Below are positions 3,110-61,325 of a stretch of 64,000 bases of DNA, in pieces. This stretch comes from Parcubacteria group bacterium. GTDB taxonomy: Bacteria > Patescibacteriota > Minisyncoccia > JACPHC01. The translations under genes and the position numbers were made by a program. The DNA lies in contig JACPHC010000006.1 of the NCBI GenBank assembly GCA_016188775.1, positions 618-64,617 of the forward strand. Reading direction: 5' to 3'. Position 1 is the stretch's first letter. The number at the start of each line of letters is the position of its first letter. The notes under the pieces are model-generated. The model worked only from the letters and a program-made list of their open reading frames with translations, was not told the origin of the DNA and ran no database searches.

Positions 3110-3139
3110 ATATAACATAATTAAAAATAATTAAAACAT

Positions 3140-3172: not shown

Positions 3173-3194
3173 AAAATTTTACTGCGTAAAATTT

Positions 3195-5824: not shown

Positions 5825-5852
5825 CAAAAATTATTAAAACTAACTACTAAAT

Positions 5853-6248: not shown

Positions 6249-6278
6249 AACTATGCCTATCCAAAAACTCAACCAACT

Positions 6279-6369: not shown

Positions 6370-6400
6370 AAAAAAGTTTTCGAACGGACTAAATAAAACT

Positions 6401-7090: not shown

Positions 7091-7102
7091 TTTTTTATAA
7101 AT

Positions 7103-7573: not shown

Positions 7574-7623
7574 TAAATATAGAGCGATTAATAAAAAAAT
7601 GATATAATAAAAAATACTAATCA

Positions 7624-10535: not shown

Positions 10536-10664
10536 ATTAGAAAATTAATCCCGTTAAAAATCGCGGATACGTAATTAAAATATGATATATATAAAAAATA
10601 AAATTTATAAATAATAAAATAGAGCCTCGGATGCTTTTTGCGCCCGCATTCTATTTTTAACGGG

Positions 10665-11387: not shown

Positions 11388-12271
11388 AAAAAATCATTAT
11401 TGTTGTTATATTTTTAGTTTTTTTCGTTAATTTAGCTCAAGCGGTTGAATTGACCTATCCGTCCGTTGGGCAAGGCATAACCACTCCCGCCGGCGCCACC
11501 AGCGATTTAGGAAATTATCTCGCATATGTTTACACTCTCGGCTTAGGCGCTTCCGGCATTGCCGCTTTGGCAATGATTGTCTGGAGCGGCATCAAATATA
11601 TGACTTCGGAAATTGTCACTTCCAAAGAAGAAGCGCGCAAAGATATTCAAGCCGCTCTTTTTGGACTGGCTTTGCTTCTGGGCGCTTATTTGATCTTAAA
11701 CACCATTAATCCTAATTTAGTCAGCTTAACTAATCCTGAGCTTGAAAGGCCGGCTGCGGTTCAAGGATATTGCGGCACGTCCGGACAAAAACAATCTGAA
11801 TTTACTCCGCCAAGTTGTTGCTCTGGCTATCAATCTGATAATGAAGGTATATGTAGATACGTCGGTCTAACTGAAGGCAGCGCTTGCCCTGCCACGATAA
11901 CAAACGGCGTTAACTGCTCAAGCGACCAGGTTTGCTCTAATAACAAATGCAAAGTTAAAGCATCATTCAATGAAACCTGCAGCGATGTGAAAAATAGTTC
12001 AGATTGCCTTTCAGGCCTCACCTGCATATCAACAGGGATAATTGGCGGTAATTGTCATAAGCCAACGGGCCAAAGAGTCGAAAGCGAATATTGCGGAGAT
12101 AATATTAATAGTTGCGGTTCCGGATTAAAATGTTCTGCCGGTATTTGCGTGGTCAGTACTTCTACCACAGCAAAAACAACTAACGAAGCCTGCACCAGTG
12201 GTCCTGAATGCCAAAGCAATCGATGCGAATACCCTGATAGCAGATCAACTAGTAGAACGTGCCAACCTTAA
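11384..12271 (+). CDS. VirB2/TrbC-like T4SS pilin domain (signal peptide plus two hydrophobic helices) fused to a ~180-aa Cys-rich C-terminal extension
   Basis: Signal MKKIIIVVIFLVFFVNLAQA. Helix 1 is LGASGIAALAMIVWSGIKYM, followed by a polar turn TSEIVTSKEEARKDIQ, then helix 2 AALFGLALLLGAYLILNTINP. The C-terminus has four C-x(5-7)-C-x-SG-x-C-x(3-8)-C-like modules. Confidence 0.5.
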   Translation: MKKIIIVVIFLVFFVNLAQAVELTYPSVGQGITTPAGATSDLGNYLAYVYTLGLGASGIAALAMIVWSGIKYMTSEIVTSKEEARKDIQAALFGLALLLGAYLILNTINPNLVSLTNPELERPAAVQGYCGTSGQKQSEFTPPSCCSGYQSDNEGICRYVGLTEGSACPATITNGVNCSSDQVCSNNKCKVKASFNETCSDVKNSSDCLSGLTCISTGIIGGNCHKPTGQRVESEYCGDNINSCGSGLKCSAGICVVSTSTTAKTTNEACTSGPECQSNRCEYPDSRSTSRTCQP

Positions 12272-12277
12272 TAGACT

Positions 12278-12676
12278 ATGCAATTTCAAGTCCCCCAATT
12301 CATTGAAGTGGAAGATAAAATCATCGGCCCTCTCACGCTCAAACAATTTCTTTATATCGCCGCTCCCGTAGGCTTTACTTTTCTTTTAAAATTTTTCTTA
12401 AGTCTGCCGTTTATGATTCTTTTAGGCGGGCCGACCGTGCTTTTCGGTTTCGCTCTGGCGTTTTACAAACCCGGCGGCCGGCCTTTTATCGTAATGATAA
12501 AATCTTTTTTTAATTTTCTGTCCAAGCCCCGTCTTTATATGTGGCAGCATCCGCGAACAAAAGAAATCACTCTGGAAAAAGAACTTATTCCCCAAACTAA
12601 AAGATTAAAAGAGCAAAAATGGAAATTGAACATATTTTCCGCCAAAGGCGGATCCGCCTCTGGCGGGAAAAAATAA
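12278..12676 (+). CDS. PrgI/VirB3-like small membrane protein of Gram-positive-type T4SS
   Basis: 132 aa. The N-terminus MQFQVPQFIEVEDKIIGPLTLKQFLYI is followed by two TM helices, and the gene sits immediately upstream of VirB4. The family is recognised from memory. Confidence 0.5.
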   Translation: MQFQVPQFIEVEDKIIGPLTLKQFLYIAAPVGFTFLLKFFLSLPFMILLGGPTVLFGFALAFYKPGGRPFIVMIKSFFNFLSKPRLYMWQHPRTKEITLEKELIPQTKRLKEQKWKLNIFSAKGGSASGGKK

Positions 12677-12798
12677 ATTTTGACAATTTGTTATTTAAAT
12701 TAAAATTAAAGTATGGCACCCGCCTTCGCTAAAAGCTTCGGCGGATGCTCATAATTGTAGCGAAATTTATTTCGCTATAATTATAAATTTCGACAATT

Positions 12799-13449
12799 AT
12801 GGCAAAACCTGAAGCGTCGACTCAACAATTTGTTATAATAGATCAAATCCGCGATAACGTGGTGTTTTTAAAAGACGGACAAATGCGCGGAATTTTAGCC
12901 GCCTCTTCTCAAAATTTCGCCCTAAAAACCGAAGAAGAACAGCAAGCGACTCTTTATCAATTCCAAAATTTTCTAAACACTTTGGATTTTTCTTTGCAAA
13001 TTGTCGTTCATTCCCGCAAATTGGATATCGCTCCTTATCTTTCCTATTTGGAAGAGGCGACCAGAAAAGAAGACAACGAACTGATGAAAATTCAAACACA
13101 AGAATACACGGAATTTATCCGTTCTTTTGTCCAAGGCTCAACGATTATGACTAAAAGTTTTTATGTTGTGGTGCCATTCGCTTTACTGGCCGGCGCGAAA
13201 AAAACCGGCGGAATTTTGAGCCTTTTCAAAACCGCGGCTGCTCCGGCCAAAACCTTGGCTAAAATGTCCGAAAAAGAATTCCAGGCTTATAAAAACCAGC
13301 TGGATCAAAGAATGGATCAGGTGGCGGCCGGGCTGACCAGGACCGGCACTCGGACCATTTCGCTCGACGCCGACAGCCTGACGGAACTTTTTTATGAAAT
13401 TTATAATCCCGGCGAAGTCAAACAAAAACCGAGAGAAATACCGGAGTAA
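12799..13449 (+). CDS. N-terminal ~216 aa of a Gram-positive-type VirB4 (TcpF/PrgJ/TrsE-like), separated from the ATPase body by an in-frame 219-bp insert
   Basis: The motif FVIIDQIRDNVVFLKDGQMRGILAASSQNFALKTEEEQQATLYQFQNFLNTLDFSLQIVV matches the conserved start of VirB4-like proteins. It is in the same reading frame as 13669..15444. Confidence 0.5.
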   Translation: MAKPEASTQQFVIIDQIRDNVVFLKDGQMRGILAASSQNFALKTEEEQQATLYQFQNFLNTLDFSLQIVVHSRKLDIAPYLSYLEEATRKEDNELMKIQTQEYTEFIRSFVQGSTIMTKSFYVVVPFALLAGAKKTGGILSLFKTAAAPAKTLAKMSEKEFQAYKNQLDQRMDQVAAGLTRTGTRTISLDADSLTELFYEIYNPGEVKQKPREIPE

Positions 13450-13485
13450 TGAATGGACATATAATAAAAATATTCTACAATCGAA

Positions 13486-13567
13486 GTCATTGCGAGGCGA
13501 TTAAATCGCCGAAGCAATCTCTCGACAATTGAGATTACTTCGTCGGCTTATGCCTCCTCATAATGAC
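13486..13567. repeat. Copy C of the family-1 miniature palindromic element, lying inside the gap that splits VirB4
   Basis: GTCATTGCGAGGCGATTAAATCGCCGAAGCAATC ... CTCATAATGAC. Confidence 0.7.
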
Positions 13568-13668
13568 AAACAAATTATTTATTTGATTTGAGAATAGTAA
13601 TAGTTACTTATAGGATATTTGGCGAATGCATAATAATGCTATCAAATCTCACAATTAAAATTTGAACC

Positions 13669-15444
13669 ATGACTAATAATACTGAAACAATCCTAACTGA
13701 AGGAACGGTTTCAATCAAAGATATTATCGCCCCTTCGGCTCTGGAAGTTAACGCCAATTTTATAAAAATCGGCGGCAAAATCGCCCGCACTTTTTTTGTT
13801 ATTTCCTACCCAAAATTTTTAACCACGAATTGGCTTTCGCCGATTATAAATCTGGATAAAATTTTGGATGTTTCTTTATTTTTTCACCCGGTTGACACCG
13901 CTATAGTTTTAAAAAACCTCCGCAAAAAAGCCGCCCAAGTCGAATCCCAATTAATGGCTCGGGAAGAAAAAGGCCAAACCCGGGATCCGGTGCTGGAAGC
14001 CGCCATTGCCAACATTGAAGAATTAAGGGATCGGTTGTCGCAGGCCACGGAAAAACTTTTTAAATTTGGACTTTATTTTACTTTATGGGGAGAATCTTTG
14101 GAAGAATTGGAAAAAACAGAAAATGAAATTCGGACAATGCTGGAAGGCCGACTGATAATGACCAAAACAGCCACTTATCAGCAGGAAGAAGGATTTAATT
14201 CAGCTCTGCCAACCAATGACGACCAACTCCAAATCACTATGCCTATGAACACCGACACCATTTCCAGCGCTTTTCCTTTTGTTTCTTTTGACCTAACTTC
14301 CAATAAAGGCATACTTTACGGCATCAACCGGCACAATAACAGCCTGATAATTTTTGACCGGTTTTCTTTGCCTAATTACAACTCTCTGATTTTTGCCACC
14401 TCGGGCGCGGGCAAATCTTACACCACCAAACTAGAAGTTTTGCGAGCAATGATGCTGGGCTCGGACGTGATGATTTTAGATCCGGAAAATGAATACGAAT
14501 ATCTATCCCAGACAGTCGGAGGAAGTTTTTTTCGCATATCTCTGACGTCTAAACATCATATTAATCCTTTTGATCTGCCAAGACCGCGATCGGACGAAAA
14601 TCCGGCTGATGTTTTAAGATCCAATATTATTAATCTGGTCGGCCTGCTTCGCATTATGCTGGGCGGCCTGAGCCCGGAAGAAGACGGCTTGATTGACCGG
14701 GCCATCACTGAAACTTACGCCGCGCGAAACATTACCGTGGAAAGCGATTTTTCCAACGCCGAGCCGCCTTTGATGTCCGATCTTCAAACAGTTTTAGAAA
14801 GCCTGGAAGGCGGAAAAAATTTAGCCACGAGACTGGAAAAATACACCCGAGGCAGTTACGCCGGATTTCTTAATCAGCCGTCCAATGTTGATATCGGCAA
14901 CCGCCTGGTTGTTTTTTCTATTCGGGATATGGAAGACGAGCTCCGTCCAATCGCGATGTATATTATTCTCCATTTCATCTGGAACGAAATCCGTCGGGAA
15001 ATTAAAAAACGAATTTTAATAGTGGATGAAGCCTGGGTTTTAATGAAACATGAAGACGGCGCTTCTTTCCTTTTTGGGATTGCCAAAAGAGGAAGGAAGT
15101 ATTATTTGGGACTTACCATTATCACGCAAGACGTGGCGGATCTTATGAATAGCCCTTACGGTAAGCCCATTGTCACCAATTCCTCTATGCAACTTTTGTT
15201 AAAACAATCGCCGGCCACGATTGAAACGGTTGTTAAAACATTTAATCTGACGGATGAAGAAAAATTCCTGCTGCTGGAATCAAACGTCGGGGAAGGAATA
15301 TTTTTTGCCGGACTCAAGCACGCGGCTATAAAAGTAATCGCCTCCTACGCCGAAGATCAAATTATCACATCGGATCCTTCTCAACTACTGGCGATTCAAA
15401 AAGCCAAAGAGCAATTAGTCCAAGCTGAAGAAAAAGTGATTTAA
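13669..15444 (+). CDS. VirB4/TrbE/CagE-family T4SS ATPase (central and C-terminal parts)
   Basis: Walker A is LIFATSGAGKSYT and Walker B is RILIVDEAW. The N-terminal region IIAPSALEV..IGGKIARTFFVISYPKFL..WLSPII is typical of VirB4. Walker A sits at residue ~243 of this ORF. That only fits the usual position if the 216 aa of the upstream ORF are added. Confidence 0.85.
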   Translation: MTNNTETILTEGTVSIKDIIAPSALEVNANFIKIGGKIARTFFVISYPKFLTTNWLSPIINLDKILDVSLFFHPVDTAIVLKNLRKKAAQVESQLMAREEKGQTRDPVLEAAIANIEELRDRLSQATEKLFKFGLYFTLWGESLEELEKTENEIRTMLEGRLIMTKTATYQQEEGFNSALPTNDDQLQITMPMNTDTISSAFPFVSFDLTSNKGILYGINRHNNSLIIFDRFSLPNYNSLIFATSGAGKSYTTKLEVLRAMMLGSDVMILDPENEYEYLSQTVGGSFFRISLTSKHHINPFDLPRPRSDENPADVLRSNIINLVGLLRIMLGGLSPEEDGLIDRAITETYAARNITVESDFSNAEPPLMSDLQTVLESLEGGKNLATRLEKYTRGSYAGFLNQPSNVDIGNRLVVFSIRDMEDELRPIAMYIILHFIWNEIRREIKKRILIVDEAWVLMKHEDGASFLFGIAKRGRKYYLGLTIITQDVADLMNSPYGKPIVTNSSMQLLLKQSPATIETVVKTFNLTDEEKFLLLESNVGEGIFFAGLKHAAIKVIASYAEDQIITSDPSQLLAIQKAKEQLVQAEEKVI

Positions 15445-15455
15445 AAAAATAATTT

Positions 15456-16580
15456 ATGTCTAGACGCAATCTAATAATTTTAATATCGGCGGTGATTTTG
15501 ATAATAATAACTATTATTTTAATCCTGACAGTTTTTTTGCGCCGGCCCGGCCCATTACCAACGCCCGCGCCTTCAGGAGGGGGGTTTATTATCCCCGAAG
15601 AACCGACTCTTCCAACGGTTTCTAAAGAAAAGGTTCGCGCTTTGAGCGAAAATCCGGCCGGCGCTTTGCATATAGTCAATGATCGGCCGCGATTCTGGGA
15701 TAAAGAAACCGGCTTCATTTTCGAAACCAGCCCTGACGGCGCCGAACCAAAAAGAATTTCTCGCGATCAACTGGCCGATGTTGTCAATATCCTGCCGCTT
15801 TCCGACAATGAAAAAATTGTTTTGGCGGAGAAAGAAAATAACCAAATAAAATATTCAATCTACAACCTTGTTTCTGGGACAAAAAATCTTCTGCCAAACG
15901 GGATTAAATCAATCGCCGTTTCACCAGACGGGAAAAAAATCGCTCTCTATTTAACTGACGGCCAAAAAAATAAACTGGTTATTACCGACGCGGACGCCAT
16001 AAACGCTAAAACAGTCGCGGAACTTAACCTGGATAAAATAAATCTCTCCTGGACCAACGCCAATATGATTTTAATGGCTGAACCGGCCTCAGGTCTGGCC
16101 TCAAGCAGTATTTTAAGTTTTAACGCGGAAAAAAAGCAACCGGATTTGATTGTTGATAATTTATTCGGACTGGAAGCTATTACCTCTTCTGATTTCTCAA
16201 AAATGATTTATTCAAAAACTAATCAAGCCGGCGGCGGCCTTTCTCTTAATCTTCTGGATTTAAGCACAAGAGAAGCGAAAAGCCTGGCTATCGGCACTTT
16301 CGCTTCCAAATGCGTTTTTTCGAAATCTAATCGAGAAATTTTTTGCGCCGTTCCGTCTGAACTGAAATCTTCAATATTGCCGGATGATTACTATAAAGGA
16401 ATATTGAGAACCAATGATTCTTTATTTAAAATCAACCTGGAAACAGCGGAATTTAGCGAAATAATAAACGGCTTTGAACGTCCGTCTTTCGATATTGTCA
16501 AACCTCTTTTAAATTCGTCAGAAGACTTTTTATTCTTTATAAATAATTTGGACGACAAGCCTTACTCAATTAAACTTTAA
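15456..16580 (+). CDS. Membrane-anchored protein with a TolB-like/beta-propeller-like extracytoplasmic domain
   Basis: N-terminal TM helix, then repeated SPDGKKIALY-type blades. Confidence 0.4.
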   Translation: MSRRNLIILISAVILIIITIILILTVFLRRPGPLPTPAPSGGGFIIPEEPTLPTVSKEKVRALSENPAGALHIVNDRPRFWDKETGFIFETSPDGAEPKRISRDQLADVVNILPLSDNEKIVLAEKENNQIKYSIYNLVSGTKNLLPNGIKSIAVSPDGKKIALYLTDGQKNKLVITDADAINAKTVAELNLDKINLSWTNANMILMAEPASGLASSSILSFNAEKKQPDLIVDNLFGLEAITSSDFSKMIYSKTNQAGGGLSLNLLDLSTREAKSLAIGTFASKCVFSKSNREIFCAVPSELKSSILPDDYYKGILRTNDSLFKINLETAEFSEIINGFERPSFDIVKPLLNSSEDFLFFINNLDDKPYSIKL

Positions 16581-17022
16581 TCACGGGTTTAATAATAACA
16601 TAACGCTCCGGCTCATTTCCTTCGCTTTCGGTTGTCAAATCAACTTCTCCGGCCAGCGCCAAATGAGCCGTTCTTCTCTCATAAGCGGACATTGAAGGCA
16701 AAGCAACGACTTTTTTAAAAAAGCGCGCTTCTTTCGCTTTTTCCAAAACCATTTCTTTAATCTCTTTCTCTCTGAATTCGCGCCAATTATTCACGTCAAT
16801 TATAAATGAAGGAGCTTCGCCCATCCGTTTCCGAATCACCAGATAAATCAGGTGATTAAAAGCCGCCAAAACTTCCGGCTTATTATTTGTCCAGCGATCG
16901 AGATCGCCGATAAAAATATTATATTTATTTTTATCGGCGTCTTGAGATAATTCAATCGTATGCTCAAAGCCCAAAACATTGATAAATTCTCTGATTAAAT
17001 TTTTTAATTGGTCTTCGTTCAT
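16570..17022 (-). CDS. jag: Jag/KhpB-like R3H-domain RNA-binding protein
   Basis: 150 aa in the conserved position downstream of yidC. The C-terminus has R3H-like ...YERRTAHLALAGEVDLTTESEG. Confidence 0.6.
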   Translation of the reverse strand: MNEDQLKNLIREFINVLGFEHTIELSQDADKNKYNIFIGDLDRWTNNKPEVLAAFNHLIYLVIRKRMGEAPSFIIDVNNWREFREKEIKEMVLEKAKEARFFKKVVALPSMSAYERRTAHLALAGEVDLTTESEGNEPERYVIIKPVIKV

Positions 17023-17151
17023 CTCGCACGATGCAGATCGCGATCGAAAGACGCAATCCGCTTGTATTAATTTTTTATAATTTCAAATTTATAATATTCG
17101 CGTATATCCCGAGAAGAAGCGATCGCGACTTCGTACGGGATAAAACTAAAT

Positions 17152-17898
17152 TCAATTCTTCTGTATTTTAGATTCTAGATTCTGATTATTGACGTGTTTT
17201 TCTTTATAAGGAAACCGTAAGGACAGATACTGCTGTAAAATAGCAAAGAGATTAAAAGTTGTCCAGTAAAGAGCAATAGCCGCTGGCCAAGATAAAGAAA
17301 TAAAGCCGATCAGGGCCGGAAAAACATAGACCATCTGTTTGTTTAATATATTGGAAAGATCGCCGGGGCTGGTGGTTTTTTGATCTTTCGGCAACATCAT
17401 TTTTGACTGCCAAAATTGAGAAACGCCGGCTAAAGCCGCGAGCGCTATATTGCGAGTCTGACTCAAATCAATAAAGCCGAGAAAAAGGGGATTGATTTGA
17501 CCCGGATTTTTCACGAAATCGTACAAAAAATTTAAAGAAGACTGATCAAGTCCGACGCGAAAAACCTTCAAAAGAGCGAATAAAACCGGAATTTGAATCA
17601 AAATAGTTAAAAAACCGGAAAAAGGATTAACTCGATGTTCTCGATAAAGATTGAGCAATGCCCGGCTTTGTTCTTCTTTGCTTTCTTTAAAATTTTTTTG
17701 AATTTCCTTAATTTTCGGCTGCAGCAAAGTCATTTCTCTTTGTGACTTTAACGCTTTTTGAGAAAGAGGATAAAGAATCAAACGGACAAAAATTGTCAGT
17801 AAAATAATTGCCACGCCAATATCGGGAACAAGGTCGTAAAAAAATATTAATAAATTAAATAGCGGCAGAAAAAGAAAATTATTGAATAATGAAGACAT
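17152..17898 (-). CDS. yidC: Membrane protein insertase YidC/Oxa1 (short form)
   Basis: 248 aa with 5 TM helices, in the rnpA-yidC-jag context. Confidence 0.75.
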   Translation of the reverse strand: MSSLFNNFLFLPLFNLLIFFYDLVPDIGVAIILLTIFVRLILYPLSQKALKSQREMTLLQPKIKEIQKNFKESKEEQSRALLNLYREHRVNPFSGFLTILIQIPVLFALLKVFRVGLDQSSLNFLYDFVKNPGQINPLFLGFIDLSQTRNIALAALAGVSQFWQSKMMLPKDQKTTSPGDLSNILNKQMVYVFPALIGFISLSWPAAIALYWTTFNLFAILQQYLSLRFPYKEKHVNNQNLESKIQKN

Positions 17899-17906
17899 TT
17901 TTATTA

Positions 17907-18254
17907 TTAATTAATGATGTTATTTTGTTTTAAAATTAATTCAAAAGTTTTTTGAATATCTTTAAAATTTGCTTTGGCCGCTTCCGGAGTCAAGCTAATC
18001 ACAATATCGAAACTTTTTGAAAATGCGGATGATTTAAGAATCGCCCGAGCCGCTTCTCTCATCTTTCTTTTTAAGCGATTCCTTAAAGTTGATTTTTTAG
18101 ACACTTTGGTTGAAATAATAAAACCAAATCGGCTTTCCGGCAGATAATTCGGCGAATATCTTAAAATTAAAAAGCCGCTCTTAAAAATCCGACCGCGCTG
18201 AAAAACATTATCAAAATCTTTTTTTTCAGTTATCCGATTGCGTCGAGCTAACAT
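17907..18254 (-). CDS. rnpA: Ribonuclease P protein component
   Basis: 115 aa basic protein lying between rpmH and yidC. Confidence 0.75.
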   Translation of the reverse strand: MLARRNRITEKKDFDNVFQRGRIFKSGFLILRYSPNYLPESRFGFIISTKVSKKSTLRNRLKRKMREAARAILKSSAFSKSFDIVISLTPEAAKANFKDIQKTFELILKQNNIIN

Positions 18255-18389
18255 TTAAACCGTGATATTCCAGCGCCCTTTTTTCTGGCGGCGTTTTAAA
18301 ACTTTTTTACCCCCGGCCCGGCTTTTTCTTTTTAAAAATCCGTGCGTCTTTTTACGTTTTTTCTTTTTAGGCTGATAAGTAATGGACAT
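18255..18389 (-). CDS. rpmH: 50S ribosomal protein L34
   Basis: Hand translation of the minus strand gives MSITYQPKKKKRKKTHGFLKRKSRAGGKKVLKRRQKKGRWNITV. It is absent from the ORF track because it is shorter than 60 aa. Confidence 0.85.
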   Translation of the reverse strand: MSITYQPKKKKRKKTHGFLKRKSRAGGKKVLKRRQKKGRWNITV

Positions 18390-18502
18390 ATTTTAATTAT
18401 TTAATTAAGATTAGCCTAGCATTAAATTCATCAACAATCAATCCACACTTTATTCACTAAATTTATTCTTGACTATATATATTCACAGCTTATTATAAAA
18501 AT

Positions 18503-19891
18503 ATGGGGGACGAAAAAATATTTTCAAAAGAAGAATTATGGCAAGCGGCCCTTGGCGAAATAGAGCTTAATATTTCAAAAGCGAATTTTTTAACTTGGCT
18601 TAAAAATACTTCCATTGATTCCATTAAAGAAGGAGTAGTGGTGATTAGCGTGCCTAATCATTTTTCAAAAGAATGGCTGGAAAATAAATATCATAAATTT
18701 ATTTTCCAAGCTTTAAAAAAATTAATTTCGGAAATCAATAAAATTGATTATATTATCAACGCCAATGCGGAAAATAAAAATACCGCCGCTCCGGAAAAAG
18801 AAAAAACTAAAAAAATCAATGAAACAGCCTTATTAAAAGAGCAACTTAGTCTCGCTGAAATTGAAATCAATCCAGAAACAAATCTTAATCAACGCTATAT
18901 GTTTGATACTTTTATTGTCGGATCTTCCAACGAACTGGCGCACGCGGCGGCCTTAAGCGTGGCTAAAAATCCCGGTCAGACCTACAATCCTTTGTTTATT
19001 TATGGAGGAGTGGGGCTTGGCAAAACTCATCTTTTGCAGGCAATCGGCAATGAAGCCCAAAAAAAAGAGAAATTAAGAGTAAAATACGTCACTTCGGAAA
19101 AATTTACCGAAGAAGTGGTAACCGCTATTCAAAACCACACAATGAATCAATTAAAAAATAACTATCGTAAAACCGATATTTTAATTGTCGATGATATTCA
19201 ATTTTTAGTCGGTAGAGAAAAAACTCAAGAAGAATTTTTTCATCTTTTTAATACTTTATACGAAAAAAATAAACAAATTATTCTTTCCTCGGATCGACCT
19301 CCTAAATCTATTGCCACGCTCGAAGACCGTCTGCGGTCGCGTTTTTCCGGTGGAATGATCGCGGATATCGGATATCCGGATTTTGAAACGCGTCTCGCTA
19401 TTTTAAAAACGAAAGTCGCGGCTCATAATTTTAAAATAAATGAAAATATTTTAATTTATATCGCCAACGCTATTACTCAAAATATTAGAGAAATTGAAGG
19501 CTGCCTAACACGACTAATCGCTTTTACTCGTCTAACTAAAAAAGAACCCACCGAAGAAGAAGCTATTAGAATACTTAATGAAGTGATAAAAACTCCTAAA
19601 AAAATTTTTAACATTAAGCAAATAATAAAAACAGTGGCTAATTTTTATGATATTGAGGAAAAAGATTTAATAGCTAAAAACCGACAAAAAGAAATTGTTA
19701 AACCCCGGCAAGTCGCGATGTATCTTTTAAGAGAAGATTTAAAGTCTTCTTTCCCGTATATCGGAAAAAAATTTGGCAATCGCGATCACACGACAGTTAT
19801 TTACGCTTGCGAAAAAATTAATGATTTAATTAAAACAAATGAAACAATAAAACAGGAAATTGGGATAATTCGCGAACGTTTAAATAACTAG
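18503..19891 (+). CDS. dnaA: Chromosomal replication initiator DnaA
   Basis: AAA+ Walker A GGVGLGKTHLL. The C-terminal DNA-binding domain is present. The gene is divergent from rpmH and upstream of dnaN. Confidence 0.95.
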   Translation: MGDEKIFSKEELWQAALGEIELNISKANFLTWLKNTSIDSIKEGVVVISVPNHFSKEWLENKYHKFIFQALKKLISEINKIDYIINANAENKNTAAPEKEKTKKINETALLKEQLSLAEIEINPETNLNQRYMFDTFIVGSSNELAHAAALSVAKNPGQTYNPLFIYGGVGLGKTHLLQAIGNEAQKKEKLRVKYVTSEKFTEEVVTAIQNHTMNQLKNNYRKTDILIVDDIQFLVGREKTQEEFFHLFNTLYEKNKQIILSSDRPPKSIATLEDRLRSRFSGGMIADIGYPDFETRLAILKTKVAAHNFKINENILIYIANAITQNIREIEGCLTRLIAFTRLTKKEPTEEEAIRILNEVIKTPKKIFNIKQIIKTVANFYDIEEKDLIAKNRQKEIVKPRQVAMYLLREDLKSSFPYIGKKFGNRDHTTVIYACEKINDLIKTNETIKQEIGIIRERLNN

Positions 19892-20099
19892 GAATAAATT
19901 GTGGAAAAAATATTGAATAAATAGTTGAAAATTATTTTTAAAAAATTATTTTTAAAAATATCCACAATTAAAATATATATTATTCACTGAATAACATATT
20001 AAAAATTAGCTAATAAAAAGCATTTTTGGAAAAAAATAAATAAAAAGTCATCTTAATAATAATAAATTTAATTAATAATAATAATAAAATTTAATTATA
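19892..20099. promoter_or_regulatory. Putative oriC segment: an AT-rich dnaA-dnaN intergenic region with DnaA-box-like 9-mers
   Basis: TGTGGAAAA at ~19901 and ATATCCACA at ~19961 are each one mismatch from TTATCCACA. A long AT-rich tract (AATAATAATAAATTTAATTAATAATAATAATAAAATTTAATTATAATGG) precedes dnaN, whose ATG is its final three bases. More boxes (AATCCACAC, ATTCACAG) lie upstream of dnaA at 18440-18480. Confidence 0.45.
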
Positions 20100-21200
20100 A
20101 TGGAAATAATTTGTTTGCGAGAAAATTTATTAAAAGCGATAAATCAAACGGAAAAAATTATTGGAAAAAATTTTTCTCTTCCGATTTTAAATAATCTTTA
20201 TTTTAAAACCGAAAAAGGAAGATTGAAGATTACCGCTACTAATCTCGAAATCGCTATTTCCAGCTGGGTGCCGGGAAAAATAAATGAGGAAGGAGAAACG
20301 ACTATTCCGGCGAAAATTATTTCCGGTATTATTTCCGGTCTGTCCGATGATAAAATAAACCTTAGATTTAAAGATAATTTATTAATAGTTAAAACAGATA
20401 ATTATCAGGCTCAAATTAATACTATTAACCCGAAAGAATTTCCTTTAATTCCTAAAATAAAAAGTGAAAATAAAATAAAAATTAATCAAAAAATTTTAAA
20501 AAAACATCTTTCGCGGGTTATAAAAGTCGTTAGTGAAAGCACTATTAATTCCGTTCTTTCGGGAATTTTAGTGGATAATAAAAAAAAGGAAATTAAATTT
20601 GTGGCTACGGATAGTTTTCGTCTGGCCGTCAGTATTGAAAAAAAAGAGAATGAAAATGAAGAAATTTCTTTCATTATTCCTTTTAGAACCGCGCTGGAAA
20701 TTATTAGATTAAGTTCTGACAAAGATTTTGACGTTGAAATTAATATAGGAGAAAATCAGGCGGTATTTATTTTTGAACAGTCGGAAATTATTTCCAGACT
20801 AATTGAAGGGAAATTTCCCGATTACGAAAAAATAATTCCCAATAATTTTGAAACAAAAATATTTCTTGATAAAAACGATTTTTTAAAAAATATTAAATTA
20901 GTCGGTCTATTTTCCGCCCGTCTTGGTGAAATAAAAATTAATCCTTTAAATGATAAAGAAAATCTAGAAATAAAAGCTGAAGAAAATAATTTAGGAACAA
21001 ATAAATCCGTTATTTCAGCTCAAATTCAAGGAAAAACAGAAGAAGTTGTTTTTAATTATCGTTATCTTTTAGATGGTCTTGATAATTTAGAAGAAAATAA
21101 AATTATTTTTTCTTTAAATGGAAATTCCGGCCCGTCTTATTTGAATTCATTAAATAAAGCCGATTATTTTTATCTTTTGATGCCAATTAGGAATCAATAA
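20100..21200 (+). CDS. dnaN: DNA polymerase III beta sliding clamp
   Basis: 366 aa immediately after dnaA, with a three-domain clamp-like length and pattern. Confidence 0.85.
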   Translation: MEIICLRENLLKAINQTEKIIGKNFSLPILNNLYFKTEKGRLKITATNLEIAISSWVPGKINEEGETTIPAKIISGIISGLSDDKINLRFKDNLLIVKTDNYQAQINTINPKEFPLIPKIKSENKIKINQKILKKHLSRVIKVVSESTINSVLSGILVDNKKKEIKFVATDSFRLAVSIEKKENENEEISFIIPFRTALEIIRLSSDKDFDVEINIGENQAVFIFEQSEIISRLIEGKFPDYEKIIPNNFETKIFLDKNDFLKNIKLVGLFSARLGEIKINPLNDKENLEIKAEENNLGTNKSVISAQIQGKTEEVVFNYRYLLDGLDNLEENKIIFSLNGNSGPSYLNSLNKADYFYLLMPIRNQ

Positions 21201-40967: not shown

Positions 40968-41186
40968 AATTATACATAATAATCCGAATATTATTTACAT
41001 TATTTAAAGAAATGGATACCTATTCGCGGAACCGCTGTCGGCTCGCTCCTGCGGCTCGCCGCAGCTTAACTCTCGGCGTCAAAACTTTTGCTTCGCAAAA
41101 GACCAATCTTTTGACGCCTCCGAGATATTCCGCTTGATAGGCATCCATTTCTTTGGATTAATTTTTAAAAATTAATTTCTATAAAT

Positions 41187-54316: not shown

Positions 54317-54357
54317 AAATTAAACAGCTCAAAATATAATACCTTGAATTGCAAAAT

Positions 54358-54458
54358 GTCATCGCGAGCGAGCCCTAAGGCGAGCGCGGCGATCTCGCGT
54401 TTATATACAGAAGCGTAGGATTGCCGCGTCGCTCGCTTTGTTCGCTCCTCGCAATGAC
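54358..54458. repeat. Copy E of the family-1 miniature palindromic element (GC-rich core variant)
   Basis: GTCATCGCGAGCGAGCCCTAAGGCGAGCGCGGCGATC ... GATTGCCGCGTCGCTCGCTTTGTTCGCTCCTCGCAATGAC. Confidence 0.75.
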
Positions 54459-54493
54459 ATCTTTTTGAGAATTTCGTAATTCATAGATAATAT

Positions 54494-55712: not shown

Positions 55713-55871
55713 ATGCCTGTTTGCTGTCAAGAATTAGAAGAGAAAAAAAGTTTTTTAAAAATGGAATTTGTGAATGTTTGTCCTTTTTGTGGAACTGTTT
55801 TAAGCCCGGAAAGGTTTAAAACAATAATAAAAGAAATTGAAAAGGAGAAAAAAGATGCAATGCAAGGATAA
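55713..55871 (+). CDS. Small zinc-ribbon protein, 52 aa
   Basis: Strong SD AAAGGAGG upstream, with CC..C..CPFC. It is absent from the ORF track because it is shorter than 60 aa. Confidence 0.45.
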   Translation: MPVCCQELEEKKSFLKMEFVNVCPFCGTVLSPERFKTIIKEIEKEKKDAMQG

Positions 55872-56073
55872 GAAATGCGGAGGTGAAGTAGATTTTAAAT
55901 TGATGAATGGAATAATGGTGAGACTTGGGCCTAGCGAATTGGATCAAGGTTTTCCTTGCAAAAAGTGCGGCCAATTATACAAAAATCACGGCGGATTGGT
56001 TTCTAGGGAAATCAAGGGGAAAATTAAATTTCTGTATTTAAATAAAAAAACTCTTGAAATAGAGCTTAGATGA
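55855..56073 (+). CDS. Small zinc-ribbon protein, 72 aa
   Basis: SD AAGGAG at 55842-55847. The motifs are C..C....C..C. It overlaps the upstream small ORF by 17 nt. Confidence 0.45.
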   Translation: MQCKDKKCGGEVDFKLMNGIMVRLGPSELDQGFPCKKCGQLYKNHGGLVSREIKGKIKFLYLNKKTLEIELR

Positions 56074-56138: not shown

Positions 56139-56213
56139 GCCCTCGTAGCTCAACGGATAGAGCGTAGGCCTCCGGAGCCTAAGACAGGGGTTCAATTCCT
56201 CTCGAGGGCACCA
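56139..56213 (+). tRNA. tRNA-Arg (anticodon CCG)
   Basis: Folded by hand. The acceptor stem is GCCCTCG/CGAGGGC, the D arm GCTC-AACGGATA-GAGC, the anticodon arm TAGGC-CTCCGGA-GCCTA, and the T arm AGGGG-TTCAATT-CCTCT. The discriminator is A and the CCA end is encoded. Confidence 0.85.
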
Positions 56214-56216
56214 AAA

Positions 56217-56407
56217 TAAAAAACCCGCGCCCGGGTTTTTTATTTTGGTGTATATTTACGACCGCGCTCGAACTTGCTTTAACCCCACACCTAAATTTTA
56301 GGTATGGGGGTTTATCAAAAATTCCTGAACTAAGGAAGTCCGCCGCCAGCCGCCGCTCTGAACGAGTAGGCAGCGGGGCTTCACTTGCGGCTCGTGGGGA
56401 AAATTCT
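56217..56407. repeat. Left copy of a ~190-bp near-perfect inverted repeat, beginning 4 nt after the tRNA CCA end
   Basis: Its reverse complement matches 59756-59946 with only 2 mismatches. It includes the hairpin AAAACCCGCGCCCGGGTTTT and a GC-rich block. Confidence 0.9.
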
Positions 56408-56447
56408 TGACATGACACAAATTTATTTAGGTGATATAATCAAAATC

Positions 56448-56909
56448 ATGAATAAAAAAGTTTTATTTTTTGTTGTTATAATAATCGCTGTTATTTCAAT
56501 CAGTGCATATTTTTGGCTACAGAAGGCAGATGTTCTTATTTCTACTCCTGCTTCACGAAAAACATCGCCTACACCAACTTCAAATGAGCTGACTACAAAA
56601 GTAAAGAACCCCACTATTGCTAATTCGGCAAACGATCTTGTCGGCAACAACAACCTTGAAAGTATCGGCTTAATTTGGGATAGAGAAGAAGGCGCGGTAG
56701 AATATGTTATTTTCCGCTCCGATTTCATAAGCGGCCCCTTTGTGGAATTTAGACGTATTCGTGCAGGTATTGAGATACGCGCAAACACCGAGGATATTAC
56801 ACCGGATGCTAGGACAAAAACGCTTTGCTATAAAATTGAAGCAAGAGACATTGCCGGAAAGATCATTAGAATTTATGAACCGATATGCGTGCCAAAGTGG
56901 CAAGAATAA
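56448..56909 (+). CDS. Membrane-anchored or secreted protein that is a single-domain paralog of a domain within the downstream large protein
   Basis: The start at ATG 56448 is preferred. It is preceded by ATGACA, 17 nt, then TATAAT ending 7 nt upstream. The track start 56385 lies inside the inverted repeat. Residues ~60-150 duplicate residues ~160-245 of ORF 56931..59684. Confidence 0.55.
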   Translation: MNKKVLFFVVIIIAVISISAYFWLQKADVLISTPASRKTSPTPTSNELTTKVKNPTIANSANDLVGNNNLESIGLIWDREEGAVEYVIFRSDFISGPFVEFRRIRAGIEIRANTEDITPDARTKTLCYKIEARDIAGKIIRIYEPICVPKWQE

Positions 56910-56930
56910 ATCATCAGAATAAATTTAATT

Positions 56931-59684
56931 ATGGACAGTACCGAAGTTAATCAGACAAAAATTTCAGTTAAGCACGTTGCTACTGCAATTGTGGGCTTAG
57001 TTTTTATTGTTTTTGCCAGCCAGATTCCACAACCTACGAGCAGTTCAACAGTAATTCCGCCTGGAGGAATTGCTTTTGGGCCGGAAACATTTATCCGTTC
57101 AACGGATAAACCGGCAACAATAATTAGAAACTTTAGTGTTGCAAATCCAGATGCAAATTATTTCATCCAGATTCAAAATGGGGAAAATAGCACAAATCGA
57201 GTAAGTAGCGCAATTATAAAACTGAATGATCAAACCATTGTACCGCCCAACGAGTTTAACCAAAATGTTCCAGGATTAAGCAAGGGCATTGTTTTACAAC
57301 AAACCAATACTCTTGAAGTAGAACTCAGAAGTATGCCAAATAGCAGATTAACAGTTACGATCCGGCGAGAGATGATTAATACGACGATACAAAATAAAAG
57401 AAACGATCTTGTCGGCAACAACAACCTTGAAAGTATCGGCTTAGTTTGGGATAGAGAAGAAGGCGCGGTAGAATATGTTATTTTCCGCTCTGATTTCATA
57501 AGCGGCCCCTTTGTGGAGATCGGGCGAGCACCAACTGGCCTGGATAGAAGAACTAATGCAGAAGATATAACGGCCGACGCTAGAAAAAAGACACTCTGTT
57601 ATAAAGTTGAGGCGAGAGATATCGCCGGGAAAACAATACGAACCTACGAGCCAGTGTGCGTTTCCTCGCATGTTGCCAATCCTCATGAACTGGATGATTT
57701 AAGCAAAAGAATTTCCCCGGAGACTTTTTGCTTGAACGAACAACAACTCACTGATACATCCACAATGTCTCTAAGCGATATAGGGGTCTTTTTGCAAAAA
57801 TGGGACAGCTTCTTGATCCGCCAAGATAAAGATGTCGATGGCGTTCCGATTGACCCAGCCACAATTATTGCCAGTTCATCGGCGTCATTCGGGATTAATC
57901 CGCAAGCTATTCTTGGAACCCTCGAAAGAGAATCTGCAGCGATTACGAGGACATCTCCTCCACCGGAAACAACATTGAGGTTAATTATGGGTTTTGATTT
58001 AGCGCACCCAACTACAATCAGGCAACAAATTCAAGACGGAACAGCGCAATATCGTAGAGACTTTGATAGGTTAACGGGAGGCGAACCAACTGCCGGCGGT
58101 TGGCAGTTAGGTATTTCTAAAACTACTCTTGATGGTGTTGCTGTTGTGCCGCGCACAAAAGTATCTGCTGGAATGTTTTCGTACGATCCAGAAGTGGGTA
58201 TCGGTTGGGGTGGTAATACTGGCGCGGGAGGAAATTTTTTCCTTTGTCGAAGATGGGCCTCATTCAATTTTCCCATCCCACCCCAAGCGGTTACTCTGGA
58301 CCAACCCGCTGATGTCACTGCGACTTCATTAAAACTTTCTTGGGCGTTGCCCGCCTTCCCCGACCCCGACTTTTTACACTATAAAATTTTCCGCTCCACC
58401 AGCCCCAATGTTACCGAGAATGACACATTGGTAGCTACCATCACCAACCAATCCCAAACAGTACTTGCTAATACCGGACTTACACCAAACACCACTTTTT
58501 TCTATCGCGTCTTTGCGGTTGATCAAGATAATCTTTCCACCGGCAGCAATGAAGTATCTGCAAAAACGTCATTAGCTGTCGGATTAGCTAATACTCCCTG
58601 GCCAATGCTTAGGCATGACATGCAGCACTCAGGAAAATCTGTCTTTGTTGGCATAGATACTCCGGTATCAAAGTGGTTTCTCAATCTTCCAGATTTTGTA
58701 TTTTTTGAACTCGCTATTGGCAACGAGGGTGTTCTTTTCGGAAAAACAAGAAGCGATCAACTCCTTGCTATCAATCCAGACGGAACATTAAAATGGCAAT
58801 TGCAGTTAGAGCCGTCTCCTATTTTTACGCTTGGTTCAACTCCTGCCATTGCGGCTGATGGTGCCATTATTATAGGGGCTAAAAAGATCTACGCGGTGAA
58901 CCCGGATGGTTCAATTCGATGGTCTTTTGAATCTCCAGCTGATGAATTTTCACGTTCTTCCCCGGCGATCGGTTCCGATGGCACCATTTATATTGCCTCG
59001 ACCAATCTTTCGGTAGCAAAACTTTTCGCAATTAACCCGGATGGTACATTAAAGTGGCAGCAACCAGTCGGCTTTTTAAGTTTTGACTCTCCGGCGGTTG
59101 CTAATGACGGCACAATCTATATTCGAGCCCGAGGGAGTTCAAGCGCTTTTGATGCGCAGCTTTTAGCTTTTAATTCTGACGGATCACTTCGCTGGAGTTT
59201 CTTGCTTCCAGACGGAGAATCTAATCCATTGGTCGCTCAGGATGACACTGTATACCACATTGGCTACGACAACTTCTTGTACGCGATTAGTTCCAACGGC
59301 AATCTAAAATGGAAACAACGGATTAGCCCGGGATCAACTTCAGTATTTTCTAAAATTGGCTTAGACAATGATAGCAATGTTTATGTGGGGGCACACAGAG
59401 AAGGGAAAATTGTTTCCTATAATTCCTCTGGCAATCTCCGCTGGACATTGTCAATTGGTTTTCCGGTCAATTGCATCGGAGTAATGGACGCAAGTGAAAC
59501 TTTATATATAGGCACTAATAGTCACGGAGGAGTCTTTGCTGTTACGAAAGATGGTACTATAAAATGGCATTTTGTTTCCCCAGATAACCCTTTAGATATC
59601 GTTGGTTGTCCAATACTTGATCAAAACAGAACGCTTTATGTTGCCACTAATTCTCCGACACGAGTTTATGCGATCACGCAGTAG
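56931..59684 (+). CDS. Large membrane-anchored surface protein with a conserved N-proximal domain, an FN3 domain and a C-terminal PQQ-like beta-propeller repeat region
   Basis: N-terminal TM helix. The FN3 signature is LKLSWALP...FFYRVFAVDQDN. At least 7 repeats of the type DGT(L/I)KWQ, DGS(I/L)RWSF, NGNLKWK and SGNLRWT are present. Confidence 0.65.
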   Translation: MDSTEVNQTKISVKHVATAIVGLVFIVFASQIPQPTSSSTVIPPGGIAFGPETFIRSTDKPATIIRNFSVANPDANYFIQIQNGENSTNRVSSAIIKLNDQTIVPPNEFNQNVPGLSKGIVLQQTNTLEVELRSMPNSRLTVTIRREMINTTIQNKRNDLVGNNNLESIGLVWDREEGAVEYVIFRSDFISGPFVEIGRAPTGLDRRTNAEDITADARKKTLCYKVEARDIAGKTIRTYEPVCVSSHVANPHELDDLSKRISPETFCLNEQQLTDTSTMSLSDIGVFLQKWDSFLIRQDKDVDGVPIDPATIIASSSASFGINPQAILGTLERESAAITRTSPPPETTLRLIMGFDLAHPTTIRQQIQDGTAQYRRDFDRLTGGEPTAGGWQLGISKTTLDGVAVVPRTKVSAGMFSYDPEVGIGWGGNTGAGGNFFLCRRWASFNFPIPPQAVTLDQPADVTATSLKLSWALPAFPDPDFLHYKIFRSTSPNVTENDTLVATITNQSQTVLANTGLTPNTTFFYRVFAVDQDNLSTGSNEVSAKTSLAVGLANTPWPMLRHDMQHSGKSVFVGIDTPVSKWFLNLPDFVFFELAIGNEGVLFGKTRSDQLLAINPDGTLKWQLQLEPSPIFTLGSTPAIAADGAIIIGAKKIYAVNPDGSIRWSFESPADEFSRSSPAIGSDGTIYIASTNLSVAKLFAINPDGTLKWQQPVGFLSFDSPAVANDGTIYIRARGSSSAFDAQLLAFNSDGSLRWSFLLPDGESNPLVAQDDTVYHIGYDNFLYAISSNGNLKWKQRISPGSTSVFSKIGLDNDSNVYVGAHREGKIVSYNSSGNLRWTLSIGFPVNCIGVMDASETLYIGTNSHGGVFAVTKDGTIKWHFVSPDNPLDIVGCPILDQNRTLYVATNSPTRVYAITQ

Positions 59685-59755
59685 TAAAGCAGGGATATAA
59701 GAAGGAATTCTTCCAAATCAAAATTGTTGGGGATGAATAAAGCAATGTATTAAAG

Positions 59756-59946
59756 AGAATTTTCTCCACGAGCCGCAAGTGAAGCCCCGCTGCCTACTCG
59801 TTCAGAGCGGCGGCTGGCGGCGGACTTCCTTAGTTCAGGAATTTTTGATAAACCCCCATGCCTAAAATTTAGGTGTGGGGTTAAAGCAAGTTCGAGCGCG
59901 GTCGTAAATATACACCAAAATAAAAAACCCGGGCGCGGGTTTTTTA
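59756..59946. repeat. Right copy of the ~190-bp inverted repeat
   Basis: See the left copy. An extended -10 element TGGTATAAT at 59957-59965 follows immediately. Confidence 0.9.
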
Positions 59947-59972
59947 AAATTATTTGTGGTATAATTTCTTTG

Positions 59973-61325
59973 ATGTCTCATCTTTCTTTTTTCGGCGGAG
60001 TTGAAGAAGTGACCGGTTCAAATTATCTTTTGGAACATAAAGATAAAAAGATTTTGATTGATTGCGGAATGTTTCAGGGTTCGCGTTTTGCCGAAGAAAA
60101 AAATTTCGAACCTTTTCCTTATAATCCTAAAAAAATCGATTTTTTAGCCATTACTCATTCGCACATTGATCATATCGGCCGCATTCCAAAACTTTATCGG
60201 GAAGGTTTTCGAGGCAAAATTTTTTCCACCCGGCCGATCAAAGATTTCGCGGAACTTTTTTTATCCGACAGTCTTAAACAGTTGGAAGATATAGCGAGAG
60301 ATTTTAAAAAAGAACCCTTTTTTGACGAAAAAGATTTAATCGGCGCGATGAATCTTTTTGAAACCTACGACTACGGAGAAAAAATCGATCTGGGAGAAAA
60401 TTTTTATTTGATTTTTCGCGATGCCGGCCATATTTTGGGCTCCAGTATTATTGAAGTTTTTATAAACGGACAAAAATTGGCCTTTACCGGCGATTTAGGC
60501 AATCCGCCAACGCCGATTTTGAAACCAACCGAACGAATTTCTAACGCCGATTGGCTGATTATGGAGGCGACTTACGGCAATCGTTTGCACGAGGATAAAT
60601 TAAAAAGAAAGACGTTGTTGGAACGGGCCATTGAAGACACGGTGACCCAGGGCGGAGTTTTAATGATTCCGGCTTTTGCCATGGAAAGAACGCAGGAGAT
60701 ACTTTACGAATTGGACGAGCTGGTGAAAAATCATCGAATTCCCCGGATTCCCATTTTTATTGACAGTCCCTTGGCTATTAAAGCCACGAATATTTATAAA
60801 AAATACACCGATTATTATAATCAGGAGGCGATTAGCCTGATTCGTTCCGGCGAAGATTTTTTCCGTTTTTCCGGACTTAAATTCACCGAAACAAAAGAAG
60901 AATCAAAAAAAATCAACGATGTTCCGGCGCCAAAGATTATTATTGCCGGTTCCGGCATGTCCAACGGCGGCCGGATTTTGCATCATGAGCGCCGATACCT
61001 GGCCGATCCCAAAAGCCTTCTTTTGATTATCGGCTATCAAGCTTTTGGTTCGCTTGGCCGGAGATTGCTTGACGGAGAGAAAGAGGTCCGGCTGTTTGGC
61101 GAAACTATTCCGGTTCGGGCTCGGGTTCGGGCGATTGGCGGCTATTCGGCTCACGCGGACCAAGAAGGGCTTTTGGAATTCGTTTCCAATATGCGCGAAA
61201 CTTTAAAAAAAGTTTTTTTGGTGCACGGTGAATTCGGAGCCGCGGAAACTCTGGCTTTAAAAATCAAAGACGAAATGGCAATTGAGGCGATTATACCAAA
61301 ATTTGGAGAAAAATTTGAAATTTGA
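59973..61325 (+). CDS. MBL-fold beta-CASP family ribonuclease (RNase J / CPSF-like)
   Basis: HxHxDH motif in ITHSHIDHIGRIP, plus DAGH, EATYGN and a C-terminal His. The ATG at 59973 lies only 7 nt after the -10 hexamer, which suggests a leaderless transcript. Confidence 0.6.
   Translation: MSHLSFFGGVEEVTGSNYLLEHKDKKILIDCGMFQGSRFAEEKNFEPFPYNPKKIDFLAITHSHIDHIGRIPKLYREGFRGKIFSTRPIKDFAELFLSDSLKQLEDIARDFKKEPFFDEKDLIGAMNLFETYDYGEKIDLGENFYLIFRDAGHILGSSIIEVFINGQKLAFTGDLGNPPTPILKPTERISNADWLIMEATYGNRLHEDKLKRKTLLERAIEDTVTQGGVLMIPAFAMERTQEILYELDELVKNHRIPRIPIFIDSPLAIKATNIYKKYTDYYNQEAISLIRSGEDFFRFSGLKFTETKEESKKINDVPAPKIIIAGSGMSNGGRILHHERRYLADPKSLLLIIGYQAFGSLGRRLLDGEKEVRLFGETIPVRARVRAIGGYSAHADQEGLLEFVSNMRETLKKVFLVHGEFGAAETLALKIKDEMAIEAIIPKFGEKFEI

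Follow-up and report, generated by a model that had tools for sequence, protein, structure and literature searches.

A surface-protein operon enclosed by 191-nt inverted repeats in a variable slot beside the tRNA-Arg gene of a Parcubacteria genome

A 64,000-nucleotide (nt) stretch of DNA from a Parcubacteria group bacterium (the window, in which all coordinates are counted) contains a two-gene operon for surface proteins that is enclosed by two long inverted repeats, here called arms. The whole unit (56217-59946; 3,730 nt) lies in a slot between a tRNA-Arg(CCG) gene and the promoter of a gene for a beta-CASP metallo-beta-lactamase RNase. The content of this slot is variable and the unit is specific to the lineage of the window. 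No recombinase is encoded in the unit, and its arms are orphans among the sequences searched. The explanation that we favor, tentatively and with less than even confidence, is that the unit is an insertion module without a recombinase of its own, which entered the slot in this one lineage of Parcubacteria. Everything rests on one metagenome-assembled genome from a thinly sampled lineage, and the comparison covered 11 loci, which together with the window amount to 182 kb.

The two arms were delimited by a repeat search and by pairwise comparison. They are reverse complements of each other over 191 nt with 2 mismatches (T versus C at 56303 and G versus A at 56398), which is far above the chance expectation for an inverted repeat, and the complementarity drops off abruptly at each of the four boundaries. 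An earlier note on this DNA had described a near-perfect inverted repeat of ~190 bp with 2 mismatches, the left copy of which abuts the tRNA-Arg gene and includes its terminator hairpin. This description holds, and the gap between the CCA of the tRNA and the onset of the left arm, which opens with the hairpin AAAAAACCCGCGCCCGGGTTTTTT, is 3 nt. The interior between the arms measures 3,348 nt and carries both genes of the operon on the + strand. The -10 boxes that the same note had placed close to start codons are also present; TGATATAAT ends at 56440 and TGGTATAAT at 59965, each 7 nt ahead of an ATG (56448 and 59973, respectively). Two things had been omitted: a 34-nt direct repeat that the arms generate at the 3' end of the tRNA, and the arms themselves, which are the most unusual part of the locus. 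The features are listed in Table 1.

Table 1. Features of the tRNA-Arg slot and its flanks, in window coordinates
Feature	Position	Strand	Evidence
tRNA-Arg, anticodon CCG, encoded CCA; conserved left border of the slot	56139..56213	+	ARAGORN; Rfam tRNA, 68.9 bits
34-nt direct repeat, left copy: CACCAAAAT plus palindromic hairpin; begins in the final 5 nt of the tRNA	56209..56242	+	Repeat search
Left arm; on the - strand the same structured module as the right arm; hairpin doubles as predicted tRNA terminator	56217..56407	-	Covariance model, 240.6 bits; fold
Operon promoter TGATATAAT (extended -10), within the segment, 7 nt 5' of the ATG	56432..56440	+	11/12 consensus match, TG present
Gene for the 153-aa membrane-anchored short paralogue, no Pfam match	56448..56909	+	ORF and Pfam
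Gene-conversion tract, copy 1	56630..56746	+	98% identical to 57401-57517
Gene for the 917-aa surface protein	56931..59684	+	ORF, Pfam, model
Gene-conversion tract, copy 2	57401..57517	+	98% identical to 56630-56746
Right arm; GC-rich structured module 71 nt past the operon stop, ending in a predicted terminator hairpin	59756..59946	+	dG -80 kcal/mol, z = -4.5; covariance model, 240.1 bits
34-nt direct repeat, right copy: CACCAAAAT plus hairpin; its loop is inverted with respect to that of the left copy	59913..59946	+	Repeat search
Beta-CASP gene promoter TGGTATAAT (extended -10); right border of the slot, conserved	59957..59965	+	L012 homology resumes at 59950
Beta-CASP metallo-beta-lactamase RNase gene, host flank	59973..61325	+	Pfam Beta-Casp, RMMBL, Lactamase_B

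aa, amino acids; dG, predicted folding free energy; ORF, open reading frame.

With its 191 nt, the repeat is longer than the k-mers in common use, and it is the read pairs that determine how the 3.35-kb interior is oriented; exact-protein look-ups for the interior and the right flank gave no match in the Logan contigs. It is nevertheless very improbable that the assembler created the inverted repeat, a concern that the earlier note had raised, or the orientation of the interior. Two Logan contigs (k = 31), from runs SRR12113424 and SRR12113422, match the window at 100% identity. Each of them terminates at 56246 and thus takes in exactly the first k-1 = 30 nt of the left arm. Since two independent assemblies break where the de Bruijn graph branches at a true repeat boundary, the repeat is present in the reads. 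The arms differ at two positions and are therefore not one collapsed copy, and the interior genes are co-oriented with all of their neighbors and with replication.

Comparison with relatives indicates that the slot itself is variable. The nearest relative of the beta-CASP gene (P0011, in locus L012) is 82% identical at the amino acid level and 76% at the nucleotide level. The order in L012 is Zn-ribbon ORF, tRNA-Arg(CCG), 78-aa membrane ORF, terminator, GTATAAT promoter and beta-CASP gene; its Zn-ribbon ORF is 41% identical to the product of window positions 55837-56073 (E = 5e-9), and its tRNA-Arg(CCG) orthologue is found at 553-626. Homology between the window and L012 stops at the discriminator base of the tRNA (56210) and resumes at 59950. 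The non-homologous stretch (56211-59949) is 3,739 nt in the window versus 318 nt in L012, and the unit fills nearly all of it. L012 thus offers a tRNA-Arg locus without the unit, but one that holds the 78-aa ORF, for which no counterpart exists in the window. The nearest homologue of the cargo (P0002, 72% amino acid identity) lies in another locus, L006, and is accompanied by a short partner, p147, that is 66% identical to the 153-aa protein. This short-plus-long gene pair is situated between ComEC/MBL genes and an AspRS-like gene, with a promoter in the same leaderless style, and neither an arm nor an inverted repeat nor a tRNA is present in the L006 locus. Because the L012 frame occurs without the unit and the L006 pair occurs elsewhere without arms, the slot must be regarded as variable and the unit as an insert specific to the lineage of the window. 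Among more distant relatives, L008 carries a homologous pair (43%) amid integrase, ParA, PIN, HTH and relaxase-like genes. Beta-CASP relatives at 61-62% keep the beta-CASP/SLOG pair, with other genes upstream and without the tRNA-Arg frame.

We infer that the unit arrived in one piece, beside or into the 3' end of the tRNA, through a recombinase or transposase acting in trans. The outer ends give two hints as to the type of event. As the terminal hairpin is palindromic, the arms also form a direct repeat, CACCAAAAT plus the hairpin, whose two 34-nt copies differ at 2 positions owing to the inverted loop. Eight of these nucleotides, CACCAAAA, are beyond the inverted repeat, and they overlap the final five bases of the tRNA; for their match between the two copies, P is about 2e-5 by composition and 8e-5 empirically. 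The direct repeat favors an attachment site (att)-like, site-specific entry. On the other hand, the sequence AAAAT at 56213-17 and 59946-50 flanks both outer ends if the inverted repeat is trimmed by 1 nt, and such a 5-bp duplication would allow a transposon-like event resembling those of mobile insertion cassettes (MICs). The 99% identity of the arms would reflect either a recent origin or gene conversion. As a separate observation, the tRNA-Arg(CCG) gene of the window encodes CCA (56211-56213), and its L012 orthologue does not (GGGCA, then TACACAG; L012 626-629). The CCA falls in the part that is non-homologous to L012 and is duplicated in the CACCAAAAT of the right arm.

Several observations weigh against an insertion. 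The direct repeat is mostly an automatic outcome of having a palindromic hairpin in an inverted repeat, the share of the tRNA in it is 5 nt only, and the AAAAT duplication has a chance probability of 0.9-2.3%. Ends of 191 nt with 99% identity are atypical for att arms and for the ends of insertion sequences (IS) alike. The slot in L012 is not empty and has other content inside, which would fit either a gain in the window or a replacement in L012. No recombinase is found inside the unit or within 55 kb of it, and the sole recombinase in the window is a tyrosine recombinase (303-1193) with the architecture of housekeeping XerC/D-like enzymes. Searches of the window and the 11 loci by blastn, nhmmer and a covariance model gave no copy of the arm beyond the two described here, and the sequences searched contain neither a second insertion nor a solo arm nor a partner element. 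There was no blastn match to the arms among 50,697 phage and 72,556 plasmid records, and three patterns derived from the arms were absent from viral contigs. A 20-mer scan of metagenomes with the arms returned three matches; because all three lie in contigs of 61-65% GC and the similarity does not extend, they are attributed to chance. Finally, the cargo genes have GC content and codon usage like those of the host.

This last point reverses part of the earlier note, in which the interior was said to be higher in GC and different in codon usage. The inner segment has 42.5% GC versus 38.8% for the window. For the two genes, however, GC (0.39 and 0.44), GC at third codon positions (GC3; 0.33 and 0.37) and codon distance are all inside the host range (43 window genes; GC 0.392 +/- 0.042, GC3 0.379 +/- 0.069), and a foreign composition is rejected on these three measures. 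The proposal of an acquired cassette at a tRNA-proximal site is supported by the L012 frame without the unit and the L006 pair elsewhere, but not by GC or codon usage. The absence of an integrase or transposase from the interior, which had also been noted, is correct; the two ORFs are the only ones, and neither resembles a recombinase. Composition is atypical in strand skew only. The gene for the 917-aa protein has a GC skew of -0.017 versus +0.089 +/- 0.041 in neighboring + strand genes (about -2.6 standard deviations), and the cumulative GC skew is flat from 56 to 60 kb. The locus is placed on the leading-strand arm by the cumulative skew minimum at 17-20 kb beside dnaA/dnaN. The flat skew fits a recent arrival or flipping of the segment, or alternatively could result from amino acid composition; further surface-protein genes in the window are also skew outliers.

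A serious rival, even if on balance an unlikely one, is a local inverted duplication that was maintained by gene conversion and involved no mobility. One arm would be ancestral, either as the 3' untranslated region (UTR) and terminator of the operon or as the trailer of the tRNA, and the other would be a recent inverted copy produced by template switching or by recombination at the palindromic hairpin. Homogenization by gene conversion would have followed, with each arm retained as a needed terminator. Such an event makes a recombinase unnecessary. A very recent duplication or conversion agrees with the 99% identity, the palindrome contains the outer breakpoint, and gene conversion is demonstrably active at the locus, as described below. 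Terminators are needed at both sites, and in L012 the beta-CASP promoter is likewise preceded by one. The direct repeat also becomes automatic if the tRNA terminator started out as a palindrome with a 19-bp stem. However, there is no simple mechanism by which an inverted copy arises at a distance of 3.3 kb while the interior is neither inverted nor duplicated. The differing slot content of L012, the location of the L006 pair elsewhere and the flat GC skew are left unexplained, and the 165-nt structured body of the arm would be without a role.

The nature of the arms bears on both explanations. Their GC content is 50% versus 39% for the genome, and by predicted stability they belong to the highest 0.4% of all windows of 191 nt. 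Relative to shuffled sequences, the fold has z = -4.5 on the outward strand and -3.2 on the inward strand. When read outward (right arm on the + strand, left arm on the - strand), both copies consist of a closed three-helix body, a single-stranded A/U-rich stretch and a terminator. One of the mismatches between the arms converts a G.U pair to A-U, which keeps the pairing on the outward strand only, and the other is unpaired; two substitutions are too few for a real covariation test. The hairpin is predicted to be a terminator on both strands, and L012 likewise has a terminator ahead of the beta-CASP promoter, at the equivalent position. In the insertion that we favor, the arms would now serve as terminators or insulators, the left one for the tRNA and the right one for the operon, and both would shield the tightly packed leaderless promoters downstream. 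The right arm is effectively the 3' UTR and predicted terminator of the operon. As regards these promoters, TATAAT followed by 7 nt and ATG, with no Shine-Dalgarno sequence, recurs in the window (56435-56450 and 59960-59975), in L012 (~985-1005) and in L006 (~2250-2268). The recurrence at the operon, at the beta-CASP gene and at their homologues suggests that leaderless mRNAs are routine in the lineage.

The same structural features would suit two copies of a novel ~190-nt small RNA, or a 3'-UTR-derived RNA gene, read outward to its intrinsic terminator and inverted only incidentally. The GC content, the predicted stability, the strand bias of the z score, the like architecture of both copies and the substitution that preserves a pair on the outward strand only all agree with it, and the right arm, alone of the two, is certainly transcribed, provided that the operon is. 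No promoter, however, is present within the repeat or in common upstream sequence, nor was one detected ahead of the left copy on the - strand. The covariance model found no homologue in any of the 11 loci, and the two substitutions provide no real test of covariation. In a search of Rfam 15 (the locus by E-value and the whole window at gathering score), only the tRNA reached threshold; the best match to an arm was Trp_leader, with 22 bits against a cutoff of 41 (E = 0.42). An RNA-level role for the arms is therefore considered possible but improbable, and it is compatible with the other readings.

Other identities for the arms were considered and rejected. They are not a known RNA family, in view of the Rfam result. 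A coding remnant is not supported; the only ORF that spans an arm (79 aa) was searched against 1.84 billion representative proteins, and the single match was a junk tandem-repeat protein (E = 3e-4). A multi-copy element, which had been suggested as one outcome of a BLASTN search with the repeat, does not agree with two copies in 182 kb and a hairpin motif that is unique to the arms. Each arm is also not a miniature inverted-repeat transposable element (MITE), as the two ends of an arm, AGAATTTTC... and ...GGGTTTTTTA, do not form an inverted repeat, single arms are not flanked by a duplication, and only two copies are present in the 182 kb. An origin from a phage or plasmid is rejected on the negative blastn searches and viral-contig patterns and on the family of the 917-aa protein, which has no member among the viral contigs.

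The cargo encodes a surface protein with a beta-propeller and a short paralogue, as had been proposed earlier. The 153-aa protein has a transmembrane helix and no Pfam match. The 917-aa protein comprises, in order, a transmembrane helix, a beta-sandwich, an FN3-like paralogous domain, a conserved helical core with an invariant E334, an fn3 domain (residues 460-543 in Pfam) and a PQQ-like beta-propeller (PQQ_2, residues 701-915). The paralogous domain is common to the two proteins. A Foldseek search with the AlphaFold model of the 917-aa protein, which is poor (pLDDT 54), recovered only the propeller, with PQQ-like matches such as 3hxj; the helical core gave no sequence match in the PDB and none in the fold search. 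The family of the 917-aa protein is tiny, with 9 database hits. Its conserved part (residues ~50-447, window 57080-58270; shared with loci L006, L007 and L008) consists of the N-terminal beta-sandwich, the FN3-like domain and the helical core, in which the invariant Glu334 belongs to an LERES motif; the core is possibly a glycosidase-like domain. In the L006 homologue, the C terminus with FN3 and propeller is exchanged for a different domain.

Within the sequences for the paralogous FN3-like domains, a tract of 117 nt is 98% identical between the two cargo genes, and its flanks are only 40-75% identical. The corresponding L006 paralogues have no such tract. This is a recent gene-conversion event, and it follows that homologous exchange on repeats of ~100 nt is active at the locus. 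Genes for RuvA, RuvB and RuvC are all present in the window. With arms of 191 nt at 99% identity, the Ruv genes and the conversion tract, inversion of the interior by homologous recombination, the alternative given in the earlier note, is physically plausible on sequence grounds, and we infer that the interior is a good substrate for inversion by RecA/RuvABC recombination. Such an inversion would have no regulatory consequence. The promoter of the operon lies inside the segment and there is a predicted terminator at each outer end, so inversion would not switch expression, and either orientation would give identical expression of the operon.

Invertons and shufflons are site-specific invertible DNA switches, and the arrangement described here has an outward resemblance to them, as surface-protein genes are flanked by inverted repeats. 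The arms or the palindromic hairpins could accordingly be pictured as recombination sites of a programmed phase-variation switch. In outline the hairpin is like the core site of a recombinase, with inverted arms of 9-10 bp that flank an asymmetric GC spacer, and its orientation at one end of the unit is opposite to that at the other; a tyrosine recombinase is also present in the window. A switch is nonetheless highly unlikely. The transcript would be the same either way, no invertase is encoded nearby, and arms of 191 nt are an order of magnitude longer than the repeats of typical invertons.

The architecture of the unit resembles several classes of mobile DNA but departs from each of them, with no cognate IS or integrase and no further copy in the sequences searched, and with ends that are unusually long and alike. 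MICs are passenger genes between IS-type inverted repeats that lack a transposase and are mobilized in trans, and MIC231 of Bacillus cereus is cited as an example (PMC4337579). Here too, passenger genes lie between inverted repeats with no transposase inside, the size of 3.7 kb falls in the 3-19 kb range reported for MICs of Xanthomonas, and a 5-bp flanking duplication (AAAAT) is possible, although statistically weak. In contrast to MICs, whose repeats are shorter than 100 bp and derived from IS elements, the arms are 191 nt long and 99% identical, and their tips are terminator hairpins rather than transposase-binding tips. The window encodes no transposase, no cognate IS or transposon matched the arms in the window, the 11 loci, phages, plasmids or viral contigs, and the covariance model found the same ends neither at other sites nor around other cargo in the 182 kb.

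Integrative elements that target tRNA genes give rise to integrase-less derivatives, which are cis-mobilizable elements flanked by attL and attR. Analogous to these, the unit lies directly at the 3' end of a tRNA, with a 34-nt direct repeat that overlaps the tRNA end and supplies its CCA; the slot varies between relatives, and a distant homologue of the cargo (L008) adjoins an integrase. The repeat includes no more than 5 nt of the tRNA, however, and ~165 nt inside each repeat are inverted copies, which is abnormal for att arms. No cognate tyrosine or serine integrase is encoded inside or adjacent to the unit, and the sole tyrosine recombinase is 55 kb away.

In the dif/pdif modules of Acinetobacter plasmids, cassettes lie between inversely oriented XerC/XerD sites and are moved by the Xer recombinases of the host. 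The unit shares with them the lack of a recombinase, the inversely oriented palindromic sites at its ends and a XerC/D-like recombinase elsewhere in the window. It differs in that no dif-like sequence is recognized, the boundary repeats are 191 nt rather than 28 bp, and no second module is seen. Diversity-generating retroelements, integron attC sites, IS200/IS605 ends, bridge and omega RNAs and Tn7 ends were considered and set aside, as the partner gene (reverse transcriptase, IntI, TnpA/TnpB, IS110 recombinase or TnsB) or the end motif is absent.

Perhaps the arms are the functional ends of an undescribed kind of recombinase-less mobile cassette in bacteria of the candidate phyla radiation (CPR): symmetric, structured modules of ~190 nt with a core like a tRNA 3' end, a palindromic crossover site and a bidirectional terminator. 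We regard this as a doubtful extension, somewhat less probable even than an RNA gene. Such a cassette would drop an operon behind a tRNA gene, a recombinase encoded at another site would excise it precisely through the 34-nt direct repeat, and the RNA or DNA structure of the module might be part of the mechanism. Excision would be expected to leave the scar tRNA...GGGCACCAAAAT-hairpin-AAATTATTTGTGGTATAAT and to produce a circle with the junction ...GGTCGTAAATATACACCAAAAT-hairpin-ATTTTGGTGTATATTTACGACC....

The genomes of CPR bacteria, or Patescibacteria, are tiny, and it is probably through their surface proteins that these bacteria attach to host cells. To our knowledge, the movement of genes for such proteins between genomes and positions is poorly documented. 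Under the insertion that we favor, the locus would be a concrete and well-delimited case, in which a surface-protein operon moved into a tRNA-adjacent slot between terminator-bearing inverted modules and without a recombinase. If similar pairs of arms exist around other cargo, they would constitute a new vehicle of gene flux in the CPR. Otherwise, the unit would be a one-off rearrangement, but even so it would illustrate how inserted genes are insulated in streamlined genomes that use leaderless promoters.

Some other features of the window deserve mention. Two further intergenic elements are very stable, have no Rfam match and bear no sequence relation to the arms. One, at ~54343-54460, is GC-rich and lies between a Mur ligase gene and a 70-aa ORF; it forms a long imperfect hairpin, AATGTCATCGCGAGCGAGCC...CGCAATGACAT, with a dG of about -68 kcal/mol and AATATAAT ahead of it. 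The other, at ~41005-41155, lies upstream of a CopA-like P-type ATPase gene and has a dG of -74 to -81 kcal/mol; its ends pair over ~27 nt (AAAGAAATGGATACCTATTCGCGGAA / TTCCGCTTGATAGGCATCCATTTCTTT) in a MITE-like manner. Beside Jag, YidC, dnaA (18503-19891) and dnaN (20100-21200), the cumulative GC skew passes through a sharp minimum (17-20 kb; 17000-20100), which indicates that the window spans the replication origin. The spacer between dnaA and dnaN (19892-20099) has a GC content of only 11%. The tyrosine recombinase encoded at 303-1193 has XerC/D-like domains, and its gene precedes ~12 kb of ORFs that lack a Pfam match and a gene for a TraG-like P-loop ATPase (13669-15444). The region 303-16580, which directly adjoins the origin region, may be an integrated conjugative or mobile element. 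The ORF at 11384-12271 has an extreme codon usage, with a distance of 1.6 and a GC3 skew of -0.49.

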